Notes: generated from the sequence alone by a model not told the origin. A DNA stretch of 64,000 nucleotides from a bacterium (GCA_020350725.1 CP070719.1:1579404-1643403); one strand, 5' to 3'. Shown: positions 13,049 through 37,666, counted from the first letter of the stretch. Translations and numbers: made by a program.

Positions 13049-13900
13049 GTGTATAGTCTCCTTGGGGAATACATGGAACTCCCCATCCCGATGGAAGATA
13101 TCGTCAAAATCCACAGGGGTATGAATCAGGTGAAGGTGTCGGTGGGCGAGCGCATGTCCGAGCCCTCCGAGGTCTACATCGTTACCACCGAGGAAAAGGA
13201 GGGGGGCAAGCTCTCCACCTACGTGGTCTTTTACCTGGAAAAGCTTCGCAGGAGGATCGTCTACGGTTACGCCGATCTCCCCTTCGAACCCGACAGAAGA
13301 ATACAGGTGGAGGCGGAGGCCATCGAATTTGTCGAGGAGATGGGAGCCATTGTCGAGGACATCGCCTGGGAGAACCTGAGTGACAGGGATCGTTCCGACT
13401 GGTTGGCGAACCAGCCGCTGTATTCGTCCCCTGAGGAGGAGTCGGATCAACTGGAATATCTCTCCGAGGATGCCCTGATCCCGGACACGGAGGAAGAGGA
13501 GCATCGGGAGGAGGGTCCGGCCAGGCCTGGGGACCAGGAAGGGACGAGGGGCATCCTCGATGACTCAAGCGACAAAGTCGTCTTCGTCGAAGAGAAATTC
13601 GATGAGATGCTCCAGCAGGTCTTCCTCAATCAGCCTCAAGAGGGCAAGCGGGAAGCGGTTGATAGGGGGATCAGGAAGGCTCCTGCGGAGATCTCACCGG
13701 AGGAGGAAGGGCCGGGGGATGCCGATGGCCCCCCGACAGCTGGCGGGCCCCCGGATGCAGCGACCGCCGACGGAACCGCCGCCGGCCCGGACGGTCCGGA
13801 GATGGAAAGGAGAGGTTCGCCAGAGGAGGTGGCCCCCGGCGAGCCGTCCGTCCCGGATGAATCGAGGAGGAAAGTGCTTCGTTTTCTCTCCAAGATGTGA
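13049..13900 (+). CDS. hypothetical protein with structured N-terminal domain and acidic Pro/Gly-rich disordered tail
   Basis: GTG start. An N-terminal domain of about 120 aa is followed by a low-complexity E/D/P/G-rich region. No homolog recognised. Confidence 0.45.
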   Translation: MYSLLGEYMELPIPMEDIVKIHRGMNQVKVSVGERMSEPSEVYIVTTEEKEGGKLSTYVVFYLEKLRRRIVYGYADLPFEPDRRIQVEAEAIEFVEEMGAIVEDIAWENLSDRDRSDWLANQPLYSSPEEESDQLEYLSEDALIPDTEEEEHREEGPARPGDQEGTRGILDDSSDKVVFVEEKFDEMLQQVFLNQPQEGKREAVDRGIRKAPAEISPEEEGPGDADGPPTAGGPPDAATADGTAAGPDGPEMERRGSPEEVAPGEPSVPDESRRKVLRFLSKM

Positions 13901-14873: not shown

Positions 14874-15018
14874 GTTACCTCCGAAGAAGTACCCCGTCCA
14901 AGGCCCTCCATATCATTCCTCCGGCCTGTCCGACACCGAACAGATGGATCCTCTCACCCGGGGCGCGTGATCCCGGGGGCCGCTTTTCCCGGTCGGGCAG
15001 GCCGTGAGATCTGTGATA

Positions 15019-15759
15019 ATGGACGAGACGAACCTGACAGCGAACCATCTCGGAGAGCTTCTCCGACAGATGAGACAGAGGCAGGGTATCGACCTCCGTG
15101 ACCTGGCGGCGATGACAAAGATCAGCGTCCGCCATCTCACCGCTCTGGAGGAAGGGGATCTGGAAGGGATGCCCGGCACCTTCTTCGTCAGGGGTTTCGT
15201 CCGGAGCGTGTGTGCCGAGCTGCGCCAGGATCCCACGGAATGTCTGGAAATCCTCGACGTCCTGTTTCCCGAGGATGACGAGCCGGAGAGGAGCGTCGGT
15301 ACTGGTGCCGGACCCAGGAATGTGACCCTGCCTCTGACAGCTGCAGGGCTGGCTCTGCTCCTTCTTCTCGGAGGGGGGATCCTTCTCCTCAGCCGGGAAG
15401 ATCCCCGGTCAAAGCAGCCGGCCGCGATGGATGCCGGAGCGGCCGTCACCGGCGGGAAGGCAATCGGATCCGGCAGGGTCGAGCAGGATGCGGAAGAGAT
15501 CCCCGTCCCGGTGGACCTGAATCTTCTCATCAGAGCCATCGAGAGAACGTGGATGCGGATCCAGACCGATGAATCCGATTCCTGGGAGACAACAATGCGG
15601 CCGGGAGACGAGATCCGCCTGAGGGCAACAGAGAGCATTAATCTGCTCATCGGCAATGCCGGAGGGATCATTTTCGATCTCAACGGGAGACGGTTCGGGC
15701 CACCCGGGTCCCACGGGCAGGTCATCTCCAACTATGTCCTGACGCGGGACAACCTGTAG
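15019..15759 (+). CDS. rodZ: RodZ-like cytoskeleton protein (N-terminal HTH, TM segment, C-terminal DUF4115)
   Basis: XRE-type HTH (LGELLRQMRQRQGIDLRDLAAMTKIS), central hydrophobic helix (LALLLLLGGGILLL), and a C-terminal domain resembling DUF4115. ORF-track start is GTG at 15004; the ATG is at 15019. Confidence 0.6.
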   Translation: MDETNLTANHLGELLRQMRQRQGIDLRDLAAMTKISVRHLTALEEGDLEGMPGTFFVRGFVRSVCAELRQDPTECLEILDVLFPEDDEPERSVGTGAGPRNVTLPLTAAGLALLLLLGGGILLLSREDPRSKQPAAMDAGAAVTGGKAIGSGRVEQDAEEIPVPVDLNLLIRAIERTWMRIQTDESDSWETTMRPGDEIRLRATESINLLIGNAGGIIFDLNGRRFGPPGSHGQVISNYVLTRDNL

Positions 15760-28815: not shown

Positions 28816-30039
28816 TCACACGCTCCTCCTCACCCCCCTCGGCCGCCAGGACGGCGGGATGATTCCGTTCGATCCACGCAGGTCCGGCAACTGGTCCGCA
28901 TACATGGCGGAGAACTCCCCGTACCGGTCATTGATAAGATCGAGGGCCCCCTGCAGGGAGTCCTCTTCTCTGTCGGCGGGGAAGAGGGATCCCTGCAGGC
29001 AGCCGAACCGGAGGTGGCTCAGTGAGATCCCCAGGAGGCGGATGGGCCTTACGATGGATACCGAATCCAGAATGGCCGACGCTGATCGGTAGATCCGGCT
29101 GGTGGTCCTGATCGGATGGGCCAGCGTCATCTGCCTCGAAAAGGTGGTGAAATCCCGGTAGCGTACGGTCAGTGTCACCCTGTTTCCGGCACAGTCGTGA
29201 CGGCGCGCCCTCCGTCCGACCATCTCCGAGAGGGTCAGGAGAACCCGTCGCGCGGTGACAAGGTCGGTGACATCGCGGGGCAGGGTTGCCGAATGTCCGA
29301 TGCTCTTGACCTTTTCGTTGCCCGCCCCCAGGGGCACGACGGGGGAATCCTCCTCTCCTCGTCCCATTCTCGAAAGGGTGTGTCCCAGGACACCGAATTC
29401 ACGGACCAGGATCTGCAGCGGGAAACGTCCCAACTGGCCGCAGGTCGAAATGCCCATGGATCCCAGACGGCGTTCGGTCTCCGGACCGATGCCGCACAGC
29501 TTTCCCACCGGCATGCTTTCCATGAGGTCCCTTACGTCGCCAGGGGCAAGGACCGACAGTCCATCGGGTTTTCTCCGGCCGCCGACCAGTTTTGCCAGCA
29601 GCTTGTTGGGACCGATCCCCACGGAACAGGTGAGGCCGGTCTCCTCCCGAATCCGTTCCTTGATCCTCCCCCCGAGGGTCTCAGCCCCCCCGAAACGGTT
29701 CAGATCGGTGGTCACATCCAGAAAGGCCTCATCGACGGAATAGGGCTCCACGAGAGGGGTGAAAGATTCAAGGATATCGATGATCATGGCCGAGACGTGA
29801 CTGTACTTCCGGTGATCACACCGGACTATGACAAGGGCGGGACACAGTTTCAGGCCCTGACCGAGAGCCATGCCCGTCCTGACGCCGAACTCCCTCGCCG
29901 CATAGGATGCGGTGGTGATGATGGTCCTCTGTCCCGGCCCGGCCACTGCCACCGGTTTGCCCCTCAGGGAAGGGTTGTCCACCTCTTCCACCGAGGCGAA
30001 GAAGGCATCCATGTCCACGTGGAGGATCACCCGGTTCAT
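28816..30039 (-). CDS. dinB: DNA polymerase IV (Y-family)
   Basis: N-terminal HVDMDAFFASVE catalytic motif. Full Y-family polymerase length (407 aa). Third gene of the lexA operon. Confidence 0.9.
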   Translation of the reverse strand: MNRVILHVDMDAFFASVEEVDNPSLRGKPVAVAGPGQRTIITTASYAAREFGVRTGMALGQGLKLCPALVIVRCDHRKYSHVSAMIIDILESFTPLVEPYSVDEAFLDVTTDLNRFGGAETLGGRIKERIREETGLTCSVGIGPNKLLAKLVGGRRKPDGLSVLAPGDVRDLMESMPVGKLCGIGPETERRLGSMGISTCGQLGRFPLQILVREFGVLGHTLSRMGRGEEDSPVVPLGAGNEKVKSIGHSATLPRDVTDLVTARRVLLTLSEMVGRRARRHDCAGNRVTLTVRYRDFTTFSRQMTLAHPIRTTSRIYRSASAILDSVSIVRPIRLLGISLSHLRFGCLQGSLFPADREEDSLQGALDLINDRYGEFSAMYADQLPDLRGSNGIIPPSWRPRGVRRSV

Positions 30040-30290
30040 ACCAGTTGCGCCACCTTCTCCAGGTACCAGGTGAGGGCCTCGCCGTCGAGGACGAGCTCAT
30101 ACAGGTCGGAACCGTCCGTCACCGTGAAGTGGTGGAGGATAGCGGAACCCCTCCTCTCCGACCAGGAGAAGGTGATCCCTGAAATACGGTATCTCCTTTT
30201 CCTCCAGATAAACCAGGCCGGACGCATTTTCCCGCCCGCACCGAAGACGGCGCCCACCACGACCCGCTCCTGGATCTCCTGGGCCATCAC
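30036..30290 (-). CDS. hypothetical 84-aa protein, translationally coupled between lexA and dinB
   Basis: 4-nt overlaps with both the lexA stop and the dinB start. Coding-like composition. No family recognised (MMAQEIQERVVVGAVFGAGG...HHFTVTDGSDLYELVLDGEALTWYLEKV). Confidence 0.55.
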   Translation of the reverse strand: MMAQEIQERVVVGAVFGAGGKMRPAWFIWRKRRYRISGITFSWSERRGSAILHHFTVTDGSDLYELVLDGEALTWYLEKVAQLV

Positions 30291-31057
30291 CGGGCGTTTC
30301 CCCCTTTGAGGATGCGGATAACGGCCTCGACCCTGCCCGCGATCCTGGTTGTCCCGGCATCCTCTCCGGTGAGGACGATGGCCGGGAATTCCGGATTGGC
30401 CGCCTCGAGAGCGATCCCGTCCCGGGTCCTTCGGAATCTCTTCAGGGTGGCTTCGTCGCCCACCACCGCGACCACGATGTCGCCGTCATATACTGTGGCC
30501 TGCGGTCTGACGAGGGCCAGATCCCCCGGCAAGATCTGTTCTCCCCGCATGCTGTTTCCCTTCACCCTGAGGAGAAAGTGATCCTGCCCAGCCAGGTTTT
30601 CATCGAGGTGGATGTAATCCTCCACCTCCTCGGCGGCAAGATCGAGGGCTCCGGCGGCCACCGATCCGACCACCGGAACAGGCACACCACCGGGCCCGTC
30701 GAGGGGTGAGGGGAACCGGGACAAAATCTCCAGGCCACGGGAGATACCGGGAATCCTCCTGATGAGCCCTTTCCGCTCCAGCGCCTCCAGGTGCTTGGCC
30801 GCAGCCCGCGGACCGGAGAGGTTCAGGTGATGGGCCAGTTCACGAACAGTGGGGGGATAGCCGTTCTCGGAAAGGAAGGTCCTGATATATGCCAGGACCT
30901 GTTGCTGTCTGGGTGTGAGTTCGTGCAAAAGGCCGCCCTCCCAATTATCAGATCTCCGACTCCATATCCGACAGGAATTCAAAGTCCACAGCCTGCCATC
31001 CGACTTTTCCACCGCTGCTATCAGCGAAGTTGGAAGCTTCACTTCAGGTGGGTCCAA
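30287..31057 (-). CDS. lexA: LexA repressor
   Basis: Winged-HTH LTPRQQQVLAYI...TVRELA. S24 peptidase catalytic Ser in GNSM and the Lys region (ATLKRF). Ala-Gly cleavage site (VAAGAL). ORF-track start is TTG at 31057. A more LexA-typical start is the in-frame TTG at 30928 (MHELTPRQQ), giving about 214 aa. Confidence 0.88.
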   Translation of the reverse strand: MDPPEVKLPTSLIAAVEKSDGRLWTLNSCRIWSRRSDNWEGGLLHELTPRQQQVLAYIRTFLSENGYPPTVRELAHHLNLSGPRAAAKHLEALERKGLIRRIPGISRGLEILSRFPSPLDGPGGVPVPVVGSVAAGALDLAAEEVEDYIHLDENLAGQDHFLLRVKGNSMRGEQILPGDLALVRPQATVYDGDIVVAVVGDEATLKRFRRTRDGIALEAANPEFPAIVLTGEDAGTTRIAGRVEAVIRILKGGNAR

Positions 31058-31127: not shown

Positions 31128-31172
31128 CGGTACTTTATACCTTGAACTGGCTTAAGGTATACTTATGTATAC
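31128..31172. promoter_or_regulatory. candidate LexA operator(s): GGTAC-TTTA-TACC and perfect palindrome GGTATAC-TTAT-GTATACC
   Basis: Two palindromic GGTA...TACC motifs at 31128-31140 and 31155-31172 in the divergent lexA/smc spacer, 100-230 bp upstream of lexA. They do not match the E. coli or published Geobacter consensus, so the assignment is by position only. Confidence 0.35.
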
Positions 31173-31480
31173 CACATGGGGTCTTAGAGGTAAAGAGGCA
31201 TTCGGGTCGGCAAGGCCCTTTCGGTTTCTTTACAACGGACCCGTTAAGTGATAGAGTTTGGCATCAAAGCGTCAAGTAGGACTCAACGGTTACGGGAATC
31301 AGCCCCCGGCCGGCTCCCTCCGCGGGCAGACTCGTCCGGCGGTGTCTGTCCGGTGCCGGTGTTCCGCCGGCGGAAGCGACGGGCCGGGGCATGTGAAGGG
31401 GCTCCTCTTTCCGACGGGCGTAATCCCCTTTGCCGCACCGTCTGCACGGGCACGTTCGGGAGCATTGTCGAGAATATGTC

Positions 31481-34400
31481 ATGCGCTTGAAACGATTGGA
31501 GATACAGGGATTCAAGAGCTTCCCTGACCGGACCGTCTTCAAATTCCAGGCGGACGGCCTCACGGCCATCGTCGGTCCGAACGGTTGCGGCAAGAGCAAC
31601 ATCGTGGACGCCGTCCGGTGGGCTCTCGGCGAACAGAGCGCCAAGCTGCTCCGTGGCCAGACGATGGAGGACGTCATTTTCAACGGCAGTGACAGGCGCA
31701 AACCCCTCGGCATGGCCGAGGTTACCCTCCTTTTCGAGAACGACGGCGGCCTCAACGGGCAATGGCGTGATTATTCTGAGATATCCATCAGCCGCCGTCT
31801 TTTCCGGACCGGCGAGAGTGATTATCTGATCAACGGTGTCCCGTGTCGCCTGAAGGATGTCCGTGAGCTTCTCGCCGACGCCGGCGGGAGCAGCAGGGGT
31901 TATTCCATCGTCGAACAGGGACGGATCTCGCTCCTTATCAATTCCAAACCCGAGGAGAAGAGAGCCCTCATCGAAGAGGCGGCGGGGGTCCTCAAGTACC
32001 GGATGAGGAGGCAGGAGGCGGAGCGCAAGCTGGAGAGGACCAGGCAGAATCTCCTCCGGGTAAGCGATATCATCCGCGAGGTCAAGCGACAGGTTGATTC
32101 CCTGAAACGGAGCGCGGCCAAAGCCCGCCGTTACCGAAGGCTCCGTGACGATCTCAACTCCCTGGTCCTGCGTGTCCGATACGAGGAATTTCAGGAATTA
32201 GGGGACAGCCTGTCCGGTCTCGAGGGTGAACTGGAGGAAAAGAGAGCCGCCATGGAGGGGAGGATGACGGCCCTCGCCGCCATGGAGGCCCGGGAGGAAG
32301 TCCTCAGGCTCGAACTGGCCGGTGGTGAGGAGAACATGACAAAAGCCTTCGAGGATGTCCGGTCCATTGAATCGGAGATCGCTCGCCTCGAGGGTGATAT
32401 ATCGGTAAGAGAAGGATCCGTCAGGTCCATCGAAGAGAGAATACACCGGCTCCTCGATGACGAGAAAAATCTCCAGAGATTGGGGGAATCGGAGGAACAC
32501 GAGCGGGTTCAGCTGGAACTGGAACTGGAATCCATCGAGGGAGAATACAGGAAATACAGCGAGGGGCTGGGATCGACATTGGAGGTCCTGGAGGGATCGG
32601 AGCGCGAGCTGGCTGAGATGCGCGAAAAAGTGGACGGAGCACGGAGGGGACTCTTTTCCCTCGGCACGGAGCGCTCCCGGCTCACTTCCGAGGTCGACTC
32701 CGGGAAGAAGGTGCTGGAGAGCATCCACAGGCGGAGGGGGGAGATCCTCTCGAGGGAGTCCTTTCTGGAAGAACGGATCCGGACGGCGCGGAGCGCCAGG
32801 GCCGAACGGGAGGACGAACTCGCCAAAGCCAGCGGCCAGAGGGAAGAGCAGCAGAGGACGATCGATGATCTGAAGGCCTGTCTCGACTCCTCCAGGGCAG
32901 AGCTATCCCAGGTAGAGAGCCGGCTGGTGTCTCTGTCCGAGCAGATGGCCGAGTTCAGGGGACTCCAGAGGACCCTGGCTGCGCTCGAGGACGAGATGGA
33001 GGGGTTCTCGGAGGGTGTGAGGGGGATCCTCAAGGAATACGCCGGATCCGGTGCCTCAGGCATCCTCGGGGTGGTTGCCGATCACCTTCAGGTGCCGCAG
33101 AGGTTCGAAAAAGCTGCACTGGCCGTCCTCGGCGAGCGGCTCCAGCACGTCATTGTCGATCATCCGGATAGCGGCCTGTCCGCAGTAGACTACCTCAAGG
33201 AACGGTCCAAGGGAAGGGGTGGTTTCATACCCAAGTCGCCCAGGACCAACGGCGGTGGAAACGGGAGTCTGGCTGCGGTTCAGGAGGAGGGAGTCCTCGG
33301 TCCTCTGACGGACCTGGTGGATTTCTCCGAAGACCTGAACGGCGTGGGGGATTTTCTGCTCGGCCATGCCGTTGTCGTTGAGAGCCTGGACAAGGCCCTG
33401 CGGCTGTGGAGGTCGAGCGGCTTTGAAGGCACCCTGGTGACCCTCGACGGAGATGTGGTGGAGCCGACCGGTGTCATCACCGGGGGCAGCCTGGATGGAG
33501 GCGGCACCGAGATCCTATCGCGTAAGAGAAGGCTGAAGGAGGTCCGCGAGCTGTCTGCCTCGCTGGACGTGGAACTGGGATCCACCCGGGTCAGGAGGGA
33601 CGACCTCAGGGAGAAGATCGCCTCCGATGAGGGGGAACTCGATGAAGCCCGCAGGCGGCTGCGTGAAGCTGAAAAGAGCTGTATCGATGGAGAGGGTTCC
33701 CTTGCCCTGTTGGAGAAGGAGGCCGTGCAGCTCGAGACATCGGTTGAGGACATCCGCACCGAGGCGAGAATGATCCAGGACGAGGCGGCCCAGACATCAA
33801 GACACATCCTGGAATGTCAGGAGAGGCTTGCGCGGCTGGCTGATGAGGAGGCTGCGACGCAGGAACGGCTCCAATCCCTCGAGGGGTCCCTCGGCGAACT
33901 GGAGGGGACACTCCAGGGGCTTCGCAGGGATGCCGAGGAGGCCCGCATCAAGGTCAATTCGATCACCCTGAAGCGTGAGAGCTCGGAGAAAGCCCTCGAG
34001 GGGGCGAGGACGAGGTCCAGAGAGTTTGAGGAACGCAGGAGCCGAATGAGGGAGGAGATCGAGGATTCCAGGGCGAGGATCCTGCTCCATCGAGAGGAAA
34101 TAGAAGCGGGCAGGACAGGTGTGGAGGAGGCCGCTGCGGAACTGGATGTCAGGAAGGAGCGGCTCGTAAGGTTGCGCGAGGAACAGGAACGGGCCCGGTC
34201 GGAAGCCGGCGAGGTAGCCGTTCAGGTCCGTGAGATGAGGCAGATCATCGGTATGATGAGGGATGAGGTGTCCAGGATCGATATCAGGATCCACGAGTTG
34301 AAAACCGAAAGGCAGGGGCTTCTGACAAGGGTCCAGGAGGAACACGGGCTCGATATCGCCTCGGTTTCAGCCGATCTCATCGGAGACCGGGAATACGACC

Positions 34401-35053
34401 GCCCTGAGGCGATGGAACGGATAGGCAGCCTCAGGCAGAAGATAGCGTCGCTGGGCGAGGTCAATCCAGGCGCCGTGGAGGAGTTCGAGGAGCTGAACCA
34501 GAGGTACGATTTCCTCACCGCCCAGAAGGACGACCTGGAAAGCTCCATAGAATCCCTGCAGAAGGCCATACGAAAGATCAACCGCAAGAGCAGGGAACGG
34601 TTCGTCAGTACCTTCAAGGAGGTCAATGAGAATTTCTCCCGCCTCTTCCCCGCCCTCTTCGAGGGGGGCAGCGGAGAGATGGTGCTTATCGACGAGAACG
34701 ATCCCCTGAACACGGGGGTGGAGATCAACGTGAAGCCGCCCGGCAAGAAGCTCAGGAGCATGCAGCTCCTCTCCGGCGGCGAGAAAGCTCTGGTCAGCCT
34801 GACCATGATCCTGTCCATGTTCCTGGTCAAACCCAGCCCTTTCTGCATCCTGGACGAGGTGGATGCCCCCCTGGACGACGACAATCTCAGCCATTTCGCC
34901 CGGATCGTCCAGGATCTGTCCCGGAAATACCAGGTCCTGGTGATCACCCACAACAAACTGACCATGGAATCGGCCGACGTTCTATACGGCATCACCATGC
35001 GGGAGCCCGGAGTTTCCCAGGTGGTCTCCGTTCGCCTCAGGGACGTGGCCTGA
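31481..35053 (+). CDS. smc: chromosome partition protein Smc
   Basis: N-terminal MRLKRLEIQGFKSF...GPNGCGKSN Walker A. Long coiled coils with a central hinge. C-terminal signature LSGGEKALVSL and Walker B ILDEVDAPLD. ATG at 31481 lies within the longer ORF. Confidence 0.93.
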   Translation: MRLKRLEIQGFKSFPDRTVFKFQADGLTAIVGPNGCGKSNIVDAVRWALGEQSAKLLRGQTMEDVIFNGSDRRKPLGMAEVTLLFENDGGLNGQWRDYSEISISRRLFRTGESDYLINGVPCRLKDVRELLADAGGSSRGYSIVEQGRISLLINSKPEEKRALIEEAAGVLKYRMRRQEAERKLERTRQNLLRVSDIIREVKRQVDSLKRSAAKARRYRRLRDDLNSLVLRVRYEEFQELGDSLSGLEGELEEKRAAMEGRMTALAAMEAREEVLRLELAGGEENMTKAFEDVRSIESEIARLEGDISVREGSVRSIEERIHRLLDDEKNLQRLGESEEHERVQLELELESIEGEYRKYSEGLGSTLEVLEGSERELAEMREKVDGARRGLFSLGTERSRLTSEVDSGKKVLESIHRRRGEILSRESFLEERIRTARSARAEREDELAKASGQREEQQRTIDDLKACLDSSRAELSQVESRLVSLSEQMAEFRGLQRTLAALEDEMEGFSEGVRGILKEYAGSGASGILGVVADHLQVPQRFEKAALAVLGERLQHVIVDHPDSGLSAVDYLKERSKGRGGFIPKSPRTNGGGNGSLAAVQEEGVLGPLTDLVDFSEDLNGVGDFLLGHAVVVESLDKALRLWRSSGFEGTLVTLDGDVVEPTGVITGGSLDGGGTEILSRKRRLKEVRELSASLDVELGSTRVRRDDLREKIASDEGELDEARRRLREAEKSCIDGEGSLALLEKEAVQLETSVEDIRTEARMIQDEAAQTSRHILECQERLARLADEEAATQERLQSLEGSLGELEGTLQGLRRDAEEARIKVNSITLKRESSEKALEGARTRSREFEERRSRMREEIEDSRARILLHREEIEAGRTGVEEAAAELDVRKERLVRLREEQERARSEAGEVAVQVREMRQIIGMMRDEVSRIDIRIHELKTERQGLLTRVQEEHGLDIASVSADLIGDREYDRPEAMERIGSLRQKIASLGEVNPGAVEEFEELNQRYDFLTAQKDDLESSIESLQKAIRKINRKSRERFVSTFKEVNENFSRLFPALFEGGSGEMVLIDENDPLNTGVEINVKPPGKKLRSMQLLSGGEKALVSLTMILSMFLVKPSPFCILDEVDAPLDDDNLSHFARIVQDLSRKYQVLVITHNKLTMESADVLYGITMREPGVSQVVSVRLRDVA

Positions 35054-35415
35054 TGCCCTTTCGCCGGGAACTCGGAAAGATCGTCAGCAGGGCCTCGGGC
35101 GCCGTCGGGGCCGTCTTCGTGGACGACAACGGCGAGACCATCGACCAGTTCACGAGCAGGGGAGACCAGGAGGATATCCGCCTGGTGGGCGCCCACCAGG
35201 GTATCGTTCTCCGGGAACTGCTCCGGGTGGTCAACAGGGCGGGAAACGGTGACAGGCTTCAGGGTGTGTCCATAACCTCCCAGAACCACGTTTACTCGGT
35301 GGTCCCAGTCGATGAGGATAATTTCCTGGTTCTGGTGCAGGACCAGACCGGTCTCCCCTCGCAGGGTATGAGGGTCCTGGAGGAGGCGGTGGAGGAGATA
35401 CGGGCGTTGATCTGA
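35053..35415 (+). CDS. Roadblock/LC7 (MglB-like) domain protein
   Basis: 120 aa. Pattern typical of the Roadblock/LC7 fold (GAVGAVFVDDNGETI...LVGAHQGIVLREL...DNFLVLVQD). Start overlaps the smc stop (TGATG). Confidence 0.6.
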   Translation: MPFRRELGKIVSRASGAVGAVFVDDNGETIDQFTSRGDQEDIRLVGAHQGIVLRELLRVVNRAGNGDRLQGVSITSQNHVYSVVPVDEDNFLVLVQDQTGLPSQGMRVLEEAVEEIRALI

Positions 35416-35652
35416 GGCCTACTCCCCGTGATTCGTGACTTCTGACTCGTGTAGTCAAATCGGGAACGTACTGAAGTATAAATCTCCGGCATTCGATCAC
35501 CAAGGTAGAAATCCCCGACCGATAGAGGAACCACCCATTGCCTCGACTTCAGACGACAAGAGGGGAACGGGGACGCCCATCTCTCCGAAATACGAATCAC
35601 GGATCACTCTCTTTCAGGGGCTTATTCCCGCTTTCTTTTATAACCACATTCC

Positions 35653-36621
35653 ATGACCACTCCCGGCGATAAGGACAGATACCTGATCGGTCTCGACAGA
35701 AGCCGCAGTTCCCTGATGGGACGGTTTCGGTCCATCTTCGGCCAGGGGGCCCAGATCGGCCGGGACCAGTTGGAGGAGCTGGAGGAAGCCCTTATTCAGG
35801 CCGATGTCGGTATGGATTACACCGTTCGGATCGTCGAGGAACTTGGCCAGGTCCTCGGAAGACAAAGAGCATGGACCCAGGAGGATATCAGGGGCTTCCT
35901 GACCGCCATCATTGCCAGGGCAGTGGGCGTGGGCGGGCGGAGGAGAGGCATGCTCTCCCTGTTGGAAGGCGATGCCGGTGGGGGTTCGCGGCAGGGAAAG
36001 GGAACCGAAGTCGTTCTCGTCGTGGGCGTGAATGGAACGGGCAAGACCACTACCATCGGCAAGCTGGCGCACCGTTTCCGGAAACGCGGTCTAAGGGTCC
36101 TTCTCGCGGCGGGGGACACCTACAGGGCTGCGGCGGAAGAACAGCTTGAGATCTGGGCCGAGCGATCGGGTTCCCTTTACCACCGCGGAAGCGAAGGGGC
36201 CGATCCGGCGAGTGTCGTCCACGACGCCCTCTCCATTGCTCTGTCCGGATCGGTGGACGTCGCCCTGGTGGATACGGCGGGAAGGCTTCACACCAAGGAA
36301 CCGCTTATGAGGGAGCTGGCCAAGATCATGAAGGTCGCCTCGAGGGTGGTGGAGGGAGCCCCCCACGAGGTTGTCCTGGTCCTGGATGCGACAACGGGAC
36401 AGAATGCTCTGGTCCAGGCCAGGACTTTCCTGGAGACCGTGGGAGTGACGGCGGTGATCCTCACGAAAATGGACGGGACGGCCAAGGGGGGGATCCTCAT
36501 ACCGATCGCCGGCGAACTGGGGCTACCGATCAGCTATGTCGGCCTGGGCGAGGGCCTTGACGACCTGGTTCCCTTTGATCCGCAGGCCTACGCGGAGGCC
36601 TTGATCGGAGGGGATGATTAG
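35653..36621 (+). CDS. ftsY: signal recognition particle receptor FtsY (NG domain only)
   Basis: GVNGTGKTTT G1. DTAGR G3. TKMDGTAKGG G4-like. An SRP54-type N domain precedes it. Confidence 0.92.
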   Translation: MTTPGDKDRYLIGLDRSRSSLMGRFRSIFGQGAQIGRDQLEELEEALIQADVGMDYTVRIVEELGQVLGRQRAWTQEDIRGFLTAIIARAVGVGGRRRGMLSLLEGDAGGGSRQGKGTEVVLVVGVNGTGKTTTIGKLAHRFRKRGLRVLLAAGDTYRAAAEEQLEIWAERSGSLYHRGSEGADPASVVHDALSIALSGSVDVALVDTAGRLHTKEPLMRELAKIMKVASRVVEGAPHEVVLVLDATTGQNALVQARTFLETVGVTAVILTKMDGTAKGGILIPIAGELGLPISYVGLGEGLDDLVPFDPQAYAEALIGGDD

Positions 36622-36749: not shown

Positions 36750-36941
36750 TCAATCGAATATCCCCCCGCAGTGGGAGAGAAAAACGGCGATGAGGACCAC
36801 AATGGCCACCAGGTAGAGCAGACAGCCGGTGGCCTCGAGGATCTTCCTGACGGTGTTTTTCGTGCCTTTTCCTCTCACGGCGACCCATGCTAACAGAAAA
36901 ACGGGGTCTGAACCATATCGTAAAATAGCGGCCGGTTTCAT
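36750..36941 (-). CDS. small putative membrane protein (63 aa from internal ATG)
   Basis: MKPAAILRYG...CLLYLVAIVVLIAVFL carries one clear TM segment. Weak RBS. Could be a non-coding region. Confidence 0.3.
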   Translation of the reverse strand: MKPAAILRYGSDPVFLLAWVAVRGKGTKNTVRKILEATGCLLYLVAIVVLIAVFLSHCGGIFD

Positions 36942-37215
36942 GTCGTCCCGGTGACAAATTGGGTCAGAAAATTTTTCCCGCTCCCCCGTTTCAGGAAAGG
37001 CAGACCCCTCGCTCCACCGGATCCCCGTCTCGGCAAACCACAAGAAAACCTATTTAGAATAGCTTGTTTAAGGCCCTCCCGAAGCAGTTTCCTGTGCCGT
37101 AATTGCCGGGAGGATTCTGCACAGAATCAATAGGTTACATTGGCAAATTATTTGCAATCGATAAGGTAAAGAAATAGCTGCCGTCAGGAATCGATCAGAA
37201 AGGGGGAGGTACTCG

Positions 37216-37533
37216 ATGAAGATGAACTGCTGGGAACACAAGAGATGCGGAAGAGAGCCGGAGGGCAGCAAGGTCCAGGAACTGGGTGTTTGCGCTGCCG
37301 CCGTGGAGAAAAGACTTGACGGAGTCCACGGAGGGATCAATGCAGGCCGGACCTGCTGGGTTGTTGCGGGCACCCTTTGCGGCGGTGAGGTACAGGGGAC
37401 CTTCGCGGAAAAGATGGGGAACTGCCGAAAATGCGATTTCTATCAGGCCGTCTGGCACGAGGAGGTGGGAGACTTCGAGACGGTGAGCCAGCTCCATGAG
37501 CGGCTCATCCGAGCGAGGGTCGCAGCTTCCTGA
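37216..37533 (+). CDS. cysteine-rich small protein with paired C-W motifs (two-CW-domain-like)
   Basis: Strong RBS GGGGGAGG 8 nt upstream. NCWEHKRCG and TCWVVAGTLCGG are followed by NCRKCDFY. 105 aa. This architecture is usually N-terminal to sensor kinases, but here it stands alone. Confidence 0.6.
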   Translation: MKMNCWEHKRCGREPEGSKVQELGVCAAAVEKRLDGVHGGINAGRTCWVVAGTLCGGEVQGTFAEKMGNCRKCDFYQAVWHEEVGDFETVSQLHERLIRARVAAS

Positions 37534-37589: not shown

Positions 37590-37666
37590 GGCGGTGTAGC
37601 TCAGGTGGTTAGAGCATGCGGCTCATATCCGCAGTGTCCGGGGTTCAAGTCCCTGCACCGCCACCA
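37590..37666 (+). tRNA. tRNA-Met (anticodon CAT); elongator or possibly lysidine-type tRNA-Ile2
   Basis: Manual cloverleaf fold. Acceptor stem GGCGGTG/CACCGCC with G1-C72. D arm GCTC-AGGTGGTTA-GAGC. Anticodon stem TGCGG/CCGCA with loop CTCATAT. T arm CGGGG-TTCAAGT-CCCTG. Discriminator A plus encoded CCA. It is not an initiator tRNA (no C1xA72, no 3 G-C pairs in the anticodon stem). Confidence 0.85.

Follow-up and report, generated by a model that had tools for sequence, protein, structure and literature searches.

The window considered here, 64,000 nt (64 kb) of one strand of bacterial DNA (GCA_020350725.1 CP070719.1:1579404-1643403) with a G+C content of 59%, carries between smc and ftsY a gene for a 120-aa Roadblock/LC7 protein which, judging from its sequence, belongs to the MglC (MglB_orphan1) family and is closer to MglC than to MglB. 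The interpretation adopted, with modest confidence, is that this MglC-family gene is made together with smc within a gene order of old standing, and that its product is likely a homodimeric adaptor and not a GTPase-activating protein (GAP), with partners that are possibly other than MglB and RomR. MglC has been known only from Myxococcus, as a part of the front-rear polarity switch, and was described there as an 'orphan' without informative neighbours. The protein family, its fold, the Myxococcus function, and the NCBI label 'roadblock/LC7' are already known; the new elements are the MglC assignment and the presence of MglC-family genes in a conserved, often apparently coupled smc-ftsY slot in two or more distant lineages, some of them with cultured members (Desulfuromonadia). 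A literature search covering also the MglC papers found no publication describing a linkage of the MglC family to smc.

The 120-aa gene between smc and ftsY

The locus is read on the + strand and comprises the following elements (window coordinates):

31481-35053, + strand: smc, 1190 aa; TIGR02168 SMC_prok_B, 1059 bits, model positions 1-1181 of 1181; Pfam SMC_N and SMC_hinge
35039-35055, + strand: putative coupling junction; Shine-Dalgarno (SD)-like AGGGA at 35039-43 within the last smc codons, 9 nt before the ATG, and stop/start TGATG at 35051-55
35053-35415, + strand: mglC-like gene (MglB_orphan1 family, Roadblock/LC7 fold), 120 aa; assigned from profile, AlphaFold2 (AF2), Foldseek, and dN/dS results
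35416-35652, + strand: spacer of variable length separating ftsY from the mglC-like gene, 237 nt in the window; from an alignment with six relatives
35653-36621, + strand: ftsY, coding for the signal recognition particle (SRP) receptor GTPase, 322 aa; TIGR00064, 309.6 bits; Pfam SRP54_N and SRP54

An earlier, sequence-only reading of this DNA had placed smc, a 120-aa open reading frame (ORF), and ftsY in a row, and both its coordinates and its gene identities agree with the TIGR and Pfam matches and with a direct reading of the sequence. smc starts from the ATG at 31481 (N-terminus MRLKRLEIQGF). ftsY codes for a protein with a short N-terminus, having only ca. 20 residues ahead of the N domain and no long A domain, whose closest named relatives are those of Firmicutes (46-52% identity). 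The ORF indeed begins on the smc stop codon, as had been claimed: its ATG takes the A from the smc TGA (GCC TGA TG at 35048-55), so that the two genes overlap by 1 nt. The accompanying claim of translational coupling with the smc-ftsY pair stands for smc, on account of this overlap, but not for ftsY, which follows a variable spacer (150-380 nt) and probably has a promoter of its own; owing to the 237-nt gap, translational coupling in the window would be limited to smc and the mglC-like gene.

The ORF of 120 aa represents a true gene under selection, coding for a protein with a Roadblock/LC7 fold, as the fold model, the profile matches, the ratio of nonsynonymous to synonymous substitutions (dN/dS), and the G+C content at third codon positions (GC3) all agree. 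Its GC3 of 0.81 is at the same level as in the neighbouring genes. Full-length homologs of 49-71% identity align with it end to end, with the reading frame intact throughout, and the protein database holds an identical protein, named by NCBI 'MAG: roadblock/LC7 domain-containing protein [bacterium]', together with eight further homologs that are 49-70% identical to it. The dN/dS values range from 0.11 (relatives L003 and L012 compared) to 0.20 (the window and relative L001), the same pairs giving 0.14 for smc. In Pfam the window protein alone matches Robl_LC7 (PF03259) below the gathering cut-off (14.6 bits as against 23; E=0.027), over model positions 10-90 of 91. The same model is matched weakly by eight of the nine members of the clade of closest sequences (best E=3.9e-4), and a precomputed PF03259 match exists for most of the listed Desulfuromonadia relatives, while no NCBIfam model matches the 120-aa protein. 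The AF2 monomer model (pLDDT 79.8, pTM 0.76) has the topology alpha-beta-beta-alpha-beta-beta-beta-alpha, with helices at residues 4-13, 40-62, and 102-119 and strands at 17-24, 29-34, 72-75, 80-85, and 90-96. Foldseek finds for it MglC (7ct3) as the best match (E=7e-10), followed by a Roadblock/LC7 protein from Streptomyces, the MglB proteins of Thermus and Myxococcus, Roadblock proteins of Asgard archaea, LAMTOR, and dynein roadblock, all with a probability of 1.00. The claim of a stand-alone Roadblock/LC7 protein is thus upheld, below threshold in Pfam for the single sequence but supported by the Pfam matches of the clade, by the profile match to MglC described below, and by AF2 and Foldseek. 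That the ORF arose by chance in the GC-rich DNA following smc and is not a real gene deserves practically no credence: the window does contain many spurious long ORFs on both strands, but the full-length protein is conserved with a dN/dS of 0.1-0.2, its Roadblock fold is predicted confidently, and the family counts 351 representatives in public data. A spurious ORF was therefore rejected on the conservation and fold data.

The assignment to MglC comes from profile searches. The profile of the clade, built from the nine closest sequences (the window protein and its homologs), matched M. xanthus MglC (PDB 7CT3/7CY1) with E=6e-12, residues 1-117 aligning with 1-118 of the 120-residue chain, and dynein roadblock with E of ca. 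0.04; among PDB sequences it matched no MglB chain, even at E<=10. A separate profile of the Desulfuromonadia clade matched MglC with E=4.5e-13 and likewise no MglB chain. The window protein is devoid of the extensions that MglB has at its N- and C-termini; the same holds for the MglC homologs, which are of ca. 120 aa (PMC7949163). MglB_orphan1 proteins are defined as not encoded near mglA, every member occurring in a genome with a group-1 MglA, and have an invariant G27 after a conserved acidic residue, D26 (PMC4719450). In the family studied here G27 is invariant. The residue at 26 is N in the window protein; its clade shows D, E, K, or T, Desulfuromonadia show E, and most family members have an acidic residue there. 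A tblastn search of the window with MglA (an approximate query sequence) gave a best match of E=0.1, inside the gene for elongation factor G, and the same query had no match (E<1e-3 to 1e-5) in the flanks, up to 7-10 kb per side, of ca. 100 related loci; this lack of mglA-like ORFs agrees with the MglB_orphan1 definition.

MglC of M. xanthus (MXAN_5770) is the best match in both sequence and structure and shares with the window protein a length of ca. 120 aa, a single Roadblock/LC7 domain, and a location not beside mglA. The two proteins are ca. 25% identical, and D24 and E28, nearly invariant in the window's family, are replaced by G24 and I28 in M. xanthus MglC. Their genes differ in location as well, the window gene overlapping smc and being followed by ftsY, while M. 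xanthus mglC lies far from smc (MXAN_4901). MglB (Thermus 1J3W/3T12, M. xanthus 6HJM) has the same fold (Foldseek TM 0.7-0.8), and the D-x-x-G spacing of its D36...G39 resembles that of D24...G27 in the window protein, but it shows no detectable sequence match (E<=10), has the N- and C-terminal extensions, and is encoded next to mglA. An MglB ortholog was rejected for want of an MglB sequence match and of an adjoining mglA, and the description 'MglB-like', in the sense of a GAP, given in the sequence-only reading did not hold, the profile finding MglC and no MglB chain and the MglB extensions being absent. Streptomyces conservon CvnB (3KYE/3LEQ), Asgard Roadblock proteins, and LAMTOR/Ragulator also have this fold and act as dimer-stacking platforms working with small GTPases; they are encoded beside GTPase or sensor partners, whereas the only conserved neighbours of the window gene are smc and ftsY.

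Gene order in close and distant relatives

Close homologs were found on a set of contigs (L001-L010), in two GTDB genomes (L011 and L012), and in GCA_040961635.1 (L013); the scan of genome contigs with a close alignment yielded two species-level genomes, L011 and L012, and thus little taxonomic breadth. As an unbiased test, FtsY was used as the query and two matches at 55-57% identity were examined, the closed 2.16-Mb genome CP070682.1 (L102) and GCA_975963535.1 (L103). Each carries a 119-aa MglC-like gene, 53-55% identical to that of the window at the protein level, at a GCCTGATG junction. This junction is present in nine distinct relatives, including these two chosen blindly by FtsY similarity, and the 1-nt overlap with the SMC gene is found in the window, in L001-L012 wherever the upstream DNA is present, and in L102 and L103. 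A longer form, ...A(A/G)GGA(C/T)(G/A)TNGCCTGATG, is common to the window, L001, L005/6, L011, L102, and L103, while in L003, L004, and L012 GCCTGATG is retained and AAAGA replaces the SD-like motif. The shared junction is not a matter of chance. In L011 and L012 the wider synteny is also kept, comprising a gene for an HD-domain hydrolase, dinB (-), lexA (-), smc, the mglC-like gene, ftsY, and further on acnB (-). In L013 (51% identity) smc is followed after a 1-nt gap by the mglC-like gene and, after a further 5 nt, by ftsY.

At L102:6587-9475 the smc ORF that lies upstream of this gene covers only SMC residues 431-1190, whereas the mglC-like gene and the overlap are intact. No segment for the N-terminal head (Walker A) is present within 10 kb upstream, where the opposite strand carries a 'P-loop_SecA' ORF; this smc is either truncated or rearranged.

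An exhaustive profile search gave 351 cluster representatives, mostly of ca. 119 aa. The largest cluster, 25-33% identical to the window protein, includes proteins of Geobacter sp. OR-1, Geopsychrobacter electrodiphilus, Desulfuromonas sp., Syntrophotaleaceae, and Desulfuromonadales. From this Desulfuromonadia-type clade 80 metagenomic loci were screened by tblastn, and counted where the flank sufficed:

SMC C-terminus directly upstream: 75 of 76 loci
ftsY downstream: 55 of 55 loci
zapA further downstream: 30 of 33 loci

The gap between the smc stop and the start of the Roadblock gene is mostly 2-12 nt (range 2-30 nt). In the sole exception (L070:1-646) the Roadblock gene is preceded by a vWA-like ORF and a non-coding stretch of ca. 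250 nt, which may reflect a rearrangement or a chimeric contig. The cultured G. electrodiphilus has the order smc, Robl_LC7, a 47-nt gap, ftsY (466 aa), a 61-aa ORF, and zapA. These smc-linked proteins, annotated only as 'roadblock/LC7 domain-containing protein', belong to the same family as the window protein and occupy the same slot with a tight spacing to smc; the loci differ from the window in having a 2-30-nt spacer in place of the overlap and ftsY close by, followed by zapB and zapA. The mglC-like gene of Desulfuromonadia sits in a chromosome-segregation and cell-division neighbourhood. In two loci (L100:11866-12377 and L015:6054-6529) ftsY is followed by a small ORF, zapA, and a gene for 5-formyltetrahydrofolate cyclo-ligase, and L100 also has a gene for RNase Y; the small ORF gives a faint ZapB match in L015 and codes for 61 aa with no Pfam match in L100.

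Some other members of the family are not linked to smc. In M. xanthus smc (MXAN_4901) has been judged to lie outside any operon, and mglC (MXAN_5770) is unlinked to it. In L019 (P0039) the gene is not in the smc slot, its upstream neighbour being an HD-domain gene and its downstream neighbour rpe, and L018 (P0020) is too short for its neighbours to be judged. Taken together, these comparisons indicate that the order smc-mglC-like-ftsY is old, being common to the deep-branching lineage of the window and to Desulfuromonadia (Geobacter, Geopsychrobacter, Desulfuromonas), and that Myxococcus and at least one further branch of the family have lost the linkage to smc. The conservation of smc-roadblock-ftsY in relatives, proposed as a check on the sequence-only reading, was found in the close clade, in the blind FtsY picks, and in the Desulfuromonadia-type loci. 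Its wording that the Roadblock gene is 'inserted' into the smc-ftsY pair is misleading, the order being old and shared with Desulfuromonadia-type loci at 25-33% protein identity.

Proposed function and alternatives

The MglC of M. xanthus, a Roadblock protein forming homodimers, binds an MglB dimer via F25/D26/I28 on its two-helix side and RomR via K104/R106/R110 on its four-helix side, and at the lagging pole the RomR/MglC/MglB complex gives rise to positive feedback (PMC4719450, PMC7949163, PMC10329633). MglC acts as an adaptor sandwiched between RomR and MglB (PMC10329633). RomR homologs are present in Geobacter and Pelobacter, and RomR co-occurs with MglA and MglB (PMC3441718). Considering this co-occurrence, and that MglB_orphan1 proteins are found only with a group-1 MglA, an orthologous role as a polarity adaptor seems reasonable for the protein of the Desulfuromonadia clade.

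By the interpretation adopted here, the mglC-like gene of the window would be transcribed together with smc and translated by termination-reinitiation at UGAUG, helped by the SD-like AGGGA, and such an overlap with reinitiation would tie the synthesis of the protein to that of SMC. By analogy with the solved MglC, the product would form a homodimer by beta-sheet extension and serve as a passive two-faced adaptor, whose two-helix face and four-helix face would bind other proteins. It is unlikely to be a GAP or an exchange factor for guanine nucleotides (GEF) itself; no literature report of MglC acting as either for MglA was found. As MglC is an adaptor with no such activity reported, any regulation of a distal MglA-like GTPase, one of the two roles suggested in the sequence-only reading, would be at best indirect.

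Several points weigh against this interpretation. Homodimerisation and the adaptor role are analogies with the Myxococcus protein. The 64-kb window contains housekeeping genes only, with none for motility or polarity. Moreover, the FDI patch facing MglB (F25, D26, I28) is replaced in the window protein by D25, N26, and E28, position 25 being D or G and E28 invariant in its clade, and the KRR patch facing RomR (K104, R106, R110) by Q104, M106, and E110. R107 is invariant among the nine closest relatives, and the alignment of the C-terminal helix is possibly off by one residue. With both M. xanthus partner surfaces changed in the window's clade, the partners may differ from MglB and RomR. The Desulfuromonadia proteins, with W25, E26, E28, and in most a basic residue at 110, are closer to M. 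xanthus MglC in W25/E26 and the mostly basic position 110 than is the window's clade. Finally, the strict gene order and the stop/start coupling persist despite SMC being only 37-57% identical, which would be unexpected for functionally unrelated neighbours, so that a direct link with SMC is conceivable.

Such a link, in which the Roadblock dimer would bind Smc-ScpAB (at the head, joint, or hinge) or would load or position it at the pole or the origin region, is unlikely; an SMC accessory factor was the other role suggested in the sequence-only reading. Coupling would then match the amounts of the two proteins, and the polarity role in M. xanthus would be a derived use of the scaffold. It is favoured by the overlap or 1-12-nt spacing to smc kept across two very divergent clades, by a spacing that in the window's lineage is far tighter to smc than to ftsY, and by the loss of the MglB/RomR interface residues in the window's clade, which makes another partner plausible. 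Nevertheless, what speaks for it is gene order, and the linkage is missing both in M. xanthus, where SMC and MglC are encoded apart and smc is judged not to be in an operon, and in the L019 branch. smc and ftsY are themselves classic conserved neighbours between which, to our knowledge, no physical interaction is known. The known accessory proteins of SMC, namely the ScpA kleisin and the kite proteins ScpB and MukE, have winged-helix folds. ScpA/ScpB, MukE/MukF, and MksE/MksF are small proteins, those of the Muk and Mks systems being encoded in one operon with an SMC-like ATPase, but they have kleisin/kite winged-helix folds as against Roadblock here; a kleisin or kite subunit was rejected, as the fold predicted by AF2 and recognised by Foldseek is Roadblock. 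A further-reaching version of the SMC link, quite unlikely in our estimate, is that the MglC-type dimer was ancestrally a condensin partner, made with SMC and tethering or positioning Smc-ScpAB or the origin region at the pole, and was redeployed later for polarity in Myxococcus; the window's clade, having lost the MglB/RomR contacts and kept the smc overlap, would then display the ancestral, polarity-independent function.

It is improbable that the protein is an MglB-type GAP/GEF platform touching a distal MglA-like small GTPase, as had also been suggested from the sequence. The fold is indeed common to MglB, LAMTOR, and archaeal Roadblock proteins paired with small GTPases, but the sequence groups with MglC and not with MglB, the MglB extensions are lacking, no GTPase gene lies nearby in ca. 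100 loci, and M. xanthus MglC binds MglB and RomR, with no report found of its acting directly on MglA. A partnership with FtsY can be envisaged from the eukaryotic SR-alpha, in which a longin-type SRX domain precedes the NG domain; the Roadblock protein would be its bacterial analogue, helping to target an FtsY that has no A domain. The next same-strand gene is invariably ftsY, the gap before it shrinks to 5 nt in L013 and 47 nt in Geopsychrobacter, and only ca. 20 residues precede the N domain of the window FtsY. This explanation is nevertheless very improbable: in the window's lineage the two genes are separated by a long variable spacer with a probable separate promoter, and in L001 by an opposite-strand gene as well; in Geopsychrobacter the Roadblock gene is present even though the N-terminal region of FtsY is long; and the SRX (longin) fold is related but different.

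To return to the MglC-family adaptor made with SMC, the significance of the linkage depends on its nature. If it is only historical, the gain is one of annotation, from 'roadblock/LC7 domain protein' to 'MglC family'; if it is functional, it offers a testable tie between chromosome organisation and pole identity, in genetically tractable organisms such as Geobacter.

The ftsY spacer, the lexA region, and other features of the window

The spacer between the mglC-like gene and ftsY, 150-380 nt in the window and six relatives, is poorly conserved apart from a TATAA motif. In the window a TATAAC box (35639-35644) is situated 8 nt ahead of the ATG of ftsY, no SD sequence intervening, and in L011, L012, and L004 TATAA stands 8-10 nt before the ATG. 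The box at the same distance in relatives, with no SD sequence, suggests that ftsY may have its own promoter, giving a leaderless or near-leaderless mRNA. Terminator and promoter scans found nothing between the mglC-like gene and ftsY, and Rfam gave no match in the smc-ftsY region. Short tandem motifs occur in the spacer of relatives (ATTCCAAA/ATCCAAAA repeats at L012:10380-10460, L004:2960-3040, and L103:8060-8110), and GTGATTC/GTGACTTC repeats in that of the window (35440-35470) and of L011. In L001 a response-regulator-PilZ gene (L001:7293-8012, - strand) lies on the opposite strand between ftsY and the mglC-like gene, whose protein is 70% identical to that of the window. PilZ and receiver (REC) proteins regulate motility polarity in Myxococcus, and the L001 gene may be taken as a weak hint of a polarity context.

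The region upstream of smc and the DNA downstream of ftsY contain the following features:

30287-31057, - strand: lexA, divergent from smc; Pfam LexA_DNA_bind and Peptidase_S24; start codon uncertain
31156-31173, no strand assigned: perfect palindrome GGTATAC-TTAT-GTATACC in the lexA/smc intergenic region
37590-37663, + strand: single tRNA gene between ftsY and the convergent acnB; Rfam RF00005, 64 bits

lexA has the same position in L001, L003, L011, L012, and L103. The palindrome is kept with no or one mismatch in these five relatives (L001:2884, L003:1181, L011:6112, L012:6096, L103:3916), and GTATAC-N4-GTATAC, with up to two mismatches allowed, has a single match in the 64-kb window; it is a candidate, and a likely one, for a LexA operator with an unusual type of sequence. 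A promoter-like + strand site (31134-31163) overlaps the palindrome, and with a candidate LexA operator in this position smc-mglC could conceivably be under SOS control. lexA is part of a cassette divergent from smc (28816-31057, - strand), comprising also an 84-aa ORF (a weak DUF6504 match, E=2.4e-4) and dinB (IMS family), which looks like a small SOS mutagenesis operon; the 84-aa ORF between lexA and dinB is present in L103 as well.

Four ORFs of the window have a coding-like GC3 (0.64-0.74) and no Pfam match: 13049-13900 (+), 14913-15731 (-), 36750-37043 (-), and 37216-37533 (+). Two of them code for proteins of 272-283 aa and two for proteins of ca. 100 aa.

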